From Thermoanaerobaculia bacterium (lineage in GTDB: Bacteria; Acidobacteriota; Thermoanaerobaculia; UBA5066), in the NCBI GenBank assembly GCA_963719225.1, contig CAVRAY010000001.1, positions 3,680,001 to 3,744,000 of the forward strand: a stretch of 64,000 nt of DNA. Direction: 5' to 3'. The notes beneath the pieces were generated by a model. It searched no databases. It saw nothing but the letters and a program-made list of their open reading frames with translations, and was not told the DNA's origin. The translations under genes and the position numbers were made by a program. Numbering within the stretch: the stretch's first letter is position 1; each line of letters opens with the position of its first letter. Below, one piece after another: positions 37,950-40,024 of the stretch.

Positions 37950-38585
37950 TCAGTCCCTCCGGCCCTTCTGCGCTTCGCGCCCGGTGAGCGACTCGATCGC
38001 CCGGATCGCCGCGACGGACCCCACGTCGATGTCGCGCTGCTCGCCGCCGAGGTAGACGCGTCCGAAGGCGCCCGTCATCCTCACGTCCACGACGTTGATC
38101 TCCGCCGCTTTCTCCGCCTCGTTCGCGGCGAAGCCCGCGTAGCCCGCCGGCTCGACCTCCAGGATGTAGAGCGACTCGCCGGCGACGAGCATCATTCCCT
38201 GGCGATCGCGGTTGATGAGCTGCGCCTGGAGCGCGTCGACGCGGCGGATGACCTGCGAGGAGAGGACGCGCGGCTTGATCCGGTCGGTCTCGTTCAGGGA
38301 AAGCGCGGCGAGGATCGCGGCGCCGGCCTGCCGGACCTCCGCCTGCGACGCGCTGTGGACCTCGAGCATCCCGTAGAGCCGCTCGACGACCTGCATGCCG
38401 GGGCGCACGTCGGTCGCCTTGACGGCGATGTCGGTCACGCGGTTGATCTCGATGCCCGGGGAGATCTCGACGATGAGGGATGCCTCGAAGGCGACCGGAA
38501 GGAAGCCGCGGGCGATCGTTCCGATGTACGCCGCGACCTGCGGCTGCAGAGCGTCGAGCGTCACGAAGCTCCGAAGGTCCGCCAT
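37950..38585 (-). CDS. Permuted BMC-T shell protein (CcmP/CsoS1D-like), paralog
   Basis: [51 protein letters not shown]. Confidence 0.9.
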
Positions 38586-40024
38586 CAGTACGCGCCCTTA
38601 GCCTCTTTGGAGGACGCGGTGAGTCCTCGCGCTTCCTTGACGATCTTCACGCCGACCGATGCCCCGATGCGGGTGGCGCCGGCCGCGATCAGCTTCTGAG
38701 CGTCCTCGGCGGACCGGATTCCTCCCGACGCCTTCACGCCGAGCTTCCGGTCGACGGCCTGCGCCATGAGCTCCACGTCGCGCGCCGTGGCGCCGCCCGT
38801 GGAAAAGCCCGTCGAGGTCTTCACGAATTCCGCGCGCGCCTTTCGGGCGGCCACGCAGCCGGCCACTTTCTCTTCGTCCGTCAGGAGCGACGTTTCCAGG
38901 ATCACCTTGAGGATCGCGCCGCCGTCGTGAGCGGCCTCCGCCACGGCGCGGATGTCCTCCTCGACGGTGCGCAGGTCTCCCGACTTCAGCGCTCCGATCG
39001 CGATGACCATGTCGATCTCGCTCGCGCCCTCGCGGACGGCCCGCCGCGCCTCGAGAGCCTTCATTTCCTTCGGAATGGCCCCGAGCGGGAATCCGACGAC
39101 GGTGCACACGACCGATGAGCTGCCGGCCAGGCGGGCGGCGCAGCGCTTGACGAAGACGGGGTTGACGCACACCGACGCGAAGCCGAACTGGGCGGCCTCG
39201 TCACAGAGCTTGTCGATGTCCGCGTACGTGGCGTCGGCCTTCAGGAGCGTGTGGTCGATGAATTTCGCGAGGTCCTTGGGCACCTCGCCGATGCCGGGAG
39301 CGGCCGACACCCGGCAATCCGGTCCGACGCACGCGATCATCGAACGGACCGTGTCGGGACAGCGCGTCGCGCAGTGCCCGCCCGCCGGACACTCGGTGGC
39401 TCCGGCGGCCGCGCATCCCGCGCACCCCGCGCACGTGGGCGGAACGAGGAGCGAGGGATTCGCCGCCAGGATCTGCGTGATCCGGTCGACGAGCGAATCG
39501 AAGGAAGGTGAGGTCATGGGCCCAGAGCTCCTCGAAGTCGCCGGACGTTGTGGACCCCCCGGCGCGTTCCCACGGCTGGCATCGATGGCGTCGATCATAG
39601 CGACTCGGCGCCTGTGCCGCTCCGCGGTGCACTCGGTCGACAGGAAGACGTCCACGATCTGGAGAGCGAGGTCCTCGGCGAGGTACCCGGCGCCGAGCGT
39701 CAGGACGTTCGCGTCGTTGTGCTCGCGGGCGTTCTTCGCCGTCGCGAGGTCGAAGGCCATGCCGGCGCGGACTCCCGCGACCTTGTTCGCGGCCATGGCC
39801 GAGCCGATGCCCGCGCCGTCGACGACGATGCCGCGTTCGGCGCGGCCGGAGACGACGGCTTCGGCGGCGGCGCGCGCGAAGACGGGATAGTCGACGGGTT
39901 CGGTCGAGCTCGTCCCGACGTCGAGAACGTCCACGCCCCGCGACTTCAAATGCCGTTTGATCGCTTCCTTCAGGGCGAAGCCGCCGTGGTCCGCGCCCAC
40001 GACCACTCGTCCGGCGGCGGCCAT
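38585..40024 (-). CDS. rpiB-deoC: Ribose-5-phosphate isomerase B / deoxyribose-phosphate aldolase fusion
   Basis: [81 protein letters not shown]. Confidence 0.93.

Follow-up and report, generated by a model that had tools for sequence, protein, structure and literature searches.

SPU is among the most widespread types of bacterial microcompartment, and its biochemistry is treated in one paper (Dwyer, Sutter, and Kerfeld 2024; PMC11585597), of which the main text and the text supplements are drawn on here. An RPI-DERA fusion was described there in 20 SPU3 loci and reported in SPU3 only. Its ‘linker’ was identified as the DERA extension, which may act as an encapsulation peptide (EP), and an ‘EP Middle’ is entered in Table S2. 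Cys66 was found to be replaced by Asp in all SPU RPIs. In an SPU6 pair from Chloroflexi, in which the two proteins are separately encoded, the RPI assembles as a tetramer and has negligible isomerase activity, the DERA is a dimer that cleaves deoxyribose-5-phosphate, and the two form a roughly 1:1 complex; the extension of this DERA contains the motif C-x3-C-x4-C-x3-C. No obvious metabolic role was found for the SPU RPI, and its role was left as an open question. A second described system that is relevant here is the CcmM58/CcmM35 pair of the beta-carboxysome, in which the gene encodes an oligomeric N-terminal enzyme domain without catalytic motifs and an internal ribosome-binding site gives rise to a short C-terminal isoform (PMC8580825; PMC13515050).

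The window analysed here is a stretch of 64,000 nucleotides from a Thermoanaerobaculia bacterium (assembly GCA_963719225.1, contig CAVRAY010000001.1, positions 3,680,001–3,744,000), and the features of its microcompartment locus are listed in Table 1. DERA (PF01791) and an aldehyde dehydrogenase are encoded beside a full set of shell genes in one operon, which confirmed the SPU assignment made in an earlier reading of the sequence alone. The shell set comprises one BMC-H, one two-domain BMC-T, two CcmP-like BMC-T and three BMC-P proteins, and matches to the BMC and EutN/CcmL families in this genome were found at this locus only. A homologue from Minicystis rosea (P0063), a species in the SPU3 list of PMC11585597, is 69% identical to the fusion protein. 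Judged by the shell set, the fusion and this homologue, the locus is probably an SPU3 locus. In the PduT-like BMC-T, a His presumably occupies the position of the pore Cys in PduT-type proteins. No sigma-70-like internal promoter was detected in 33500–40400, which is weak evidence in this organism. A small gene and a PIN-domain gene (PIN by Pfam) lie directly downstream of the operon (33288–33859, plus strand). Directly upstream, on the same strand, is an MGDG-synthase-like glycosyltransferase gene with no sign of operon membership (40123–41343, minus strand), and beyond it a pair resembling AbrB and PIN by eye (41229–41940, minus strand).

Table 1. Features of the SPU3 locus, with positions in the window.
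Feature	Position	Strand	Basis
rpiB-deoC (RPI-DERA) fusion, 479 aa (P0001), first gene of the operon	38585..40024	−	Single open frame
RpiB-like domain, residues 7–144; Asp69 at the catalytic Cys position, His102 kept	39593..40006	−	Pfam and motif positions
Internal Shine-Dalgarno (SD) site GAGGAG, 10 nt ahead of Met170	39528..39533	−	Anti-SD read at the 16S 3′ end of this genome
Met170 (ATG), predicted internal start	39515..39517	−	Conservation and controls
Predicted short isoform EP-Cys-DERA, 310 aa	38585..39517	−	Inferred
EP-like amphipathic helix, residues 175–188	39461..39502	−	AlphaFold2; ‘EP Middle’ in PMC11585597 Table S2
Cys-rich module, residues 198–237 (8 Cys, His217), expanded form of the four-Cys motif of the DERA extension	39314..39433	−	
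Helix and strand element after the core cysteines, residues about 223–240	39305..39358	−	Consensus resembles the last helix-strand unit of DERA
DERA TIM barrel, residues 252–462; D338, K402 and K431 in catalytic motifs	38639..39271	−	NCBIfam, motifs, Foldseek
BMC-T, CcmP-like (Tdp), start overlaps the stop codon of the fusion	37950..38585	−	
Second CcmP-like BMC-T (Tdp)	37322..37945	−	
BMC-H shell hexamer	36940..37257	−	
BMC-P pentamer 1	36583..36906	−	
Acylating-type aldehyde dehydrogenase (PRK15398 subfamily), N-terminal EP-like extension	35118..36596	−	
BMC-T, two BMC domains (PduT-like)	34505..35116	−	
BMC-P pentamer 2	34221..34508	−	
BMC-P pentamer 3	33863..34150	−	

The single chain of RpiB, helix, cysteine cluster and DeoC proposed in the sequence-only reading proved to be one frame carrying both Pfam domains (LacAB_rpiB at residues 7–144, E 2.7e-49; DeoC at 255–461), and the NCBIfam deoC equivalog spans 252–462. 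Between the two enzymes lie a low-complexity spacer, Met170, the helix at 175–188, eight cysteines at 198–237 and a further helix. PF02502, the middle EP-like helix and PF01791 thus follow one another in one chain that has no N-terminal EP. The RpiB half carries DGAGIG, in which D69 stands in place of the Cys66 of a canonical RpiB, and H102 corresponds to the kept His99; its profile match still narrowly passes the TIGR01120 cut-off. The same DGAGIG is common to 135 of 136 fusions. Although the helix, the Met ahead of it and DGAGIG are all present as had been read, the novelty claimed for this architecture did not hold, since the RpiB-EP-DERA order, the middle EP derived from the DERA extension, the Cys-to-Asp replacement and the shell set with CcmP-like BMC-T and three BMC-P are already published for the SPU3 chimera (PMC11585597). 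The gene is a member of that described SPU3 RPI-DERA family, for which fusion, middle EP and Asp substitution were all known beforehand.

In the DERA half, the triad Asp102/Lys167/Lys201 is intact by motif as D338/K402/K431, and DERA structures were matched by Foldseek at E about 1e-27. Aldolase activity would be expected by analogy with the SPU6 homologue, the only one for which it has been measured. A second, stand-alone RpiB is encoded in the same genome; therefore, housekeeping isomerase activity need not depend on the fusion gene. In this second protein (L003, G000:C1:2908653-2909078), GGSGNGE replaces the Cys motif, which we take to resemble Glu-type RpiB enzymes. A Glu variant of RpiB from M. 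tuberculosis is mentioned in PMC11585597.

An assembly artefact or a one-off event was ruled out as the origin of the fusion, because RpiB and DeoC Pfam domains occurred on one chain in 118 of the best 120 homologues listed, and 136 of the 207 DERA-bearing loci fetched are fused. Close homologues were labelled Thermoanaerobaculia by their sources, and a query with the linker matched 22 of 301 genomes in the class and 7 of 16 in the genus. One relative with 93% identity (P0058, L011) loses the DERA frame after about 95 residues, reflecting a frameshift or an assembly error. A weak second match of the linker query (30%, E 6.8e-5) fell within an 884-aa frame (G301:C118:12404-12721), possibly by chance from low complexity.

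AlphaFold2 bore out one of the two linker elements that had been singled out earlier, predicting the helix at 175–188, whereas the Cys region stayed below a pLDDT of 50. The hydrophobic moment of the helix (0.46) ranked 50th among 464 windows, which is amphipathic but not extreme. Amphipathic, longer than 10 aa, attached through a linker of low conservation and missing from non-BMC homologues, the helix is encapsulation-peptide-like, and its cargo-directing function is putative. The extension is lacking in four DERAs (L199, L208, L213 and L216).

The best supported new point is the suggestion in the sequence-only reading that the Met ahead of this helix could start a separate EP-Cys-DeoC isoform. 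We hold with good confidence that Met170 serves as a functional internal start, a prediction based on the ribosome-binding signal and its conservation. Pairing with the anti-SD reached −7.9 kcal/mol at the internal site versus −6.3 at the 5′ start of the gene, and the internal SD contains one of only two AGG codons among the 33 Arg codons of the gene. Of the 118 protein homologues scored, all but one (117) retain the Met.

To compare genes, a site was defined as an in-frame ATG, GTG or TTG that lies within 16 codons ahead of the helix and has an SD energy of −6 kcal/mol or stronger, and 92 fusions were scored (93 representatives minus L079, which has no RpiB end motif). Such a site occurred in 47 of the 92 fusions, or in 45 after the removal of two that lie inside RpiB. 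Synonymous recoding led to an expectation of 11.9 of 92, out-of-frame starts with an SD numbered 2 and 0 in the same fusions, and 6.7% of 2132 control windows contained a start with an SD. The start position peaked at codons −11/−10 relative to the helix, and the 45 sites comprised 21 ATG, 12 GTG and 12 TTG codons. By identity, the frequency was 8/8 at about 75% or more, 8/16 at 60%–75% and 31/68 below 60%. Positive rows came from Acidobacteriota, Myxococcota, Planctomycetota, Verrucomicrobiota, Lentisphaerota, Kiritimatiellota, Calditrichota and Fidelibacterota. The site was mostly absent in one subclade of 14 rows; by the first count, 45 of the 92 fusions, or about half, had no strong site.

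Because both the 16-codon range and the −6 cut-off were set only after first sight of the data, threshold-independent checks were added. An in-frame start followed 4–12 nt after 39 of 50 GGAG sites in the linker, with 0 and 0 out of frame, and followed 49 of 348 GGAG sites in the DERA core. AGG accounted for 22 of 55 Arg codons in the linker region versus 121 of 2224 elsewhere. Kinship was controlled by drawing one gene per identity cluster: at 80% identity, a mean of 19.0 of 35 clusters was positive versus 5.1 under the null, and at 75% identity, 11.0 of 20 versus 2.5 (null maximum 7); at 70%, only five clusters remain, too few to inform. At the same SD threshold, true starts were positive more rarely (31 of 88 fusion 5′ starts and 16 of 56 starts of separate DERAs). 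Predicted mRNA folding was weak at SD-positive sites (median percentile 0.82, n = 43), although purine-rich sites fold weakly anyway; the percentile was 0.87 at true 5′ starts (n = 86) and 0.62 at SD-negative sites (n = 47). The folding test and the later trees were run without L011 and L078, both with odd DERA rows (L011 is frameshifted).

In this genome, folding reached −29.3 kcal/mol at the 5′ start versus −10.7 kcal/mol at the internal site. The 5′ start lies within a very stable predicted hairpin (about 40005–40054, minus strand), its value over 50 nt comparing with a gene median of −16.5 kcal/mol, and this hairpin could, in this genome, have a regulatory role or shift output towards the short isoform. 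It is not a general feature: among 43 genes, only 22 have weaker folding at the internal site than at the 5′ start.

An alternative reading is that the SPU3 fusion makes one protein, the internal SD and Met being remnants of the ancestral start of deoC from before the loss of the rpiB stop, and that any short product is incidental. Joining adjacent genes would leave exactly such a site, and about half of the fusions are without it. The history of the fusion also leaves room for this reading. Fused DERAs fell on one side of a branch in the DERA trees (support 82–89, not starred), which allows a single fusion origin, but the RpiB-domain tree does not show one. It requires four changes between the fused and separate states, three of them forced by strong branches; several fusion or fission events are therefore possible, and some internal sites could be recent relics. 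A second RpiB tree was built without the cut-off fragments L200–L202 and L210. In contrast, all three start codons persist in linkers of unrelated sequence and length, the rare AGG codons are kept, and the site is found across fused DERA cores that are 51% identical at minimum and 62% at median. P0033 retains the Met despite the loss of nearly the whole spacer. Retention over such distances, with three start codons and unrelated linkers, fits selection better than a relic, and the one-protein reading is considered unlikely.

Downstream of the helix, the extension carries C198, C201, C204, C212, C218, C222, C232 and C237 together with H217. The cluster described in the sequence-only reading is thus real, with eight cysteines in place of the seven counted; eight fall within the 99 linker residues versus six in the other 380. 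The conservation of these residues held among close homologues and broke down among diverse fusions. At least four Cys precede the barrel in 119 of the 120 closest proteins, and 55 of 120 close homologues have seven or eight, whereas most relatives have four or none. Among the 92 fusions, thinned to 90% identity, at least four Cys were present in 41 and none in 37. The four-Cys motif was also found in separately encoded DERAs, namely in 5 of 11 loci located through RpiB patterns and in 49 of 60 DERAs of the full set, a set biased by Cys-bearing queries. Its spacing is variable (2-2-2, 4-2-2, 9-2-2, 2-3-3 and 3-4-3), and eight changes were placed on the tree. The presence of the motif at the same place in separate DERAs and its absence from many fusions therefore mark it as an ancient component of the DERA extension that has been lost repeatedly, and its absence from so many fusions indicates that it is not essential. 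The form with seven or eight Cys is a local expansion; in this protein, CxxCxxC goes back to an Ala-Gly-Cys repeat missing from many close relatives.

These counts bear on the interpretation that accompanied the first description of the cluster, in which a fusion-specific Fe-S or Zn module sets the protein apart as a novel type of signature enzyme, with a new substrate for its Asp-bearing RpiB. The eight cysteines here and the seven or eight in close homologues agree with it, and the near-universal DGAGIG hints at continuing selection on the altered site. However, fusion specificity is ruled out by the fusions without Cys and by the separate DERAs with the motif, the published SPU6 DERA among them, and no substrate of the RPI is known, PMC11585597 having found no obvious metabolic role. 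Motif searches in 55 loci gave no association of the module with PduS/MNdh or Cys-pore BMC-T: PduS-like genes were counted at 2/20 against 0/35 (p 0.13), and no Cys-pore BMC-T was present. This interpretation is improbable. A PduS-like query gave one weak match in this genome (26%, E 3.5e-7). An apparent link between the Cys module and the internal start (Fisher p 0.04 on raw rows) vanished on independent pairs.

Fe-S or Zn binding is the usual function of four conserved Cys when these lie in a flexible part of a cytoplasmic protein. The module is, from its sequence, probably metal-binding; an Fe-S cluster would be the foremost candidate at somewhat less than an even chance, Zn is a weaker one, and a disulfide only, or nothing at all in the site, is slightly less likely again. 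With a profile built from 65 extensions, the best non-DERA matches in the PDB were almost all 4Fe-4S ferredoxin-type motifs, the matches being weak and motif-driven (E 0.007–1). The family consensus, CxxCGxC with a short helix, aligns weakly with PsaC, FwdG and chains of that kind. Unlike in ferredoxins (Fer4), the Cys spacing is variable, no ferredoxin fold was recovered and the full CxxCxxCxxxCP is rare (3 of 92 fusions and none of 60 separate DERAs). Pfam Fer4 was matched in 6 of the 65 extensions at E 0.015 or worse, and not in this protein. The AlphaFold2 model of the extension had a mean pLDDT of 76, with the first cysteines below 50. A new fold was not supported by this model or by structure searches with it, as Foldseek returned no match at E 0.001, VIA-align gave a best Z of 2.9 on the helix only, and the ESM Atlas yielded no usable match. 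Against longer proteins, the best 120 of 1144 matches to the extension profile were all DeoC proteins, a profile biased by its inclusion of the first DERA residues.

Following the core cysteines, the family consensus shows a helix and then G-A-x-R. A scoring matrix for this element, built from the 65 extensions only, found its best match at the last helix-strand unit of DERA in 194 of 196 barrels, including DERAs without the extension (median score 8.5 vs −2.4 for shuffled sequences), and HMMER gave the same secondary match in solved DERAs. Nearly all Cys-bearing fusions (40 of 41) retain the element, as do 20 of the 51 others; in this protein, it is divergent and contains two extra cysteines. 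The similarity suggests that the extension probably holds a copy of the last helix-strand unit of DERA, i.e., a partial internal duplication. Word searches of PMC11585597, limited to the main text and five text supplements (figures, including the logo in Fig. 2A, and supplement file 6 were outside their scope), found no mention of the Cys cluster, a metal, the internal start, an isoform or the duplicated element. In searches of the openly accessible literature, neither the Cys cluster nor the internal start of SPU fusions was found, and literature searches returned no case of internal initiation in a metabolosome gene. Neither the conserved internal start nor the duplicated helix-strand element appears in the searchable papers, and both lend themselves to direct tests.

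Taken together, a reading that we favour with moderate confidence is that the SPU3 RPI-DERA gene makes two proteins, with an altered RpiB as hub and a short aldolase form. A long RpiB-EP-Cys-DERA chain and a short EP-Cys-DERA chain, started at Met170 behind the internal ribosome-binding site, would be read from one frame. DERA would cleave deoxyribose-5-phosphate within the shell, giving glyceraldehyde-3-phosphate plus acetaldehyde, the latter passing to the neighbouring aldehyde dehydrogenase. The catalytically altered RpiB could serve as an oligomeric hub, and chains joining a tetramer to a dimer might cross-link the cargo core into networks. The short form would add aldolase with a free N-terminal encapsulation helix, dilute the cross-links and restore the state of unfused loci, in which DERA has a free N-terminal EP. 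The Cys module, if metal-bound, would tune the packing or the redox response of the extension.

This two-protein reading parallels CcmM58/CcmM35 in having, within a microcompartment gene, a conserved in-frame start with an SD at initiation spacing inside the coding sequence, behind an oligomeric enzyme domain altered at its catalytic motif. The two genes are not homologous, CcmM35 is a proven product and a pure scaffold, and the predicted short RPI-DERA form would be an active enzyme. Ribosome pausing at internal SD-like sites is a familiar idea, but a pause at the RpiB-linker boundary, letting RpiB fold before the sticky helix emerges and involving no initiation, is very improbable, since it needs no start codon, whereas the in-frame starts behind the linker GGAG sites lie mostly 6–10 nt downstream and never out of frame. 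A bolder extension of the comparison is possible but doubtful: the SPU3 fusions may be the metabolosome counterpart of ccmM, with the isoform ratio setting core assembly, and the DERA extension may be an undescribed small Fe-S or Zn domain, composed of four Cys and the copied helix-strand unit, that makes packing redox- or metal-sensitive.

A conserved internal start would give a sharp handle on core assembly through the long versus the short isoform, and, if the start works, expression of an SPU3 fusion should produce a second band. The DERA extension, which was deleted to make DERA soluble (PMC11585597), carries four conserved cysteines and may need a metal. Separately encoded SPU DERAs, in SPU6 and among the HO-type EP-bearing DERAs of PMC8217296, have the layout of the predicted short isoform, with an EP helix, the four-Cys motif, the helix-strand element and the barrel. 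The SPU6 RPI associates with DERA non-covalently and carries an N-terminal EP of its own, whereas the RPI here has no EP and is covalently linked. Stand-alone DERAs with an EP and C-x9-C-x2-C-x2-C were found in many genomes of the class of G301 (L111–L136) and may be the HO-type satellite DERAs of PMC8217296. At four Acidobacteriota loci (L051, L063, L067 and L072), the separate RPIs carry an extra domain of ~70 residues between the EP and RpiB, and the DERAs have two Cys only.
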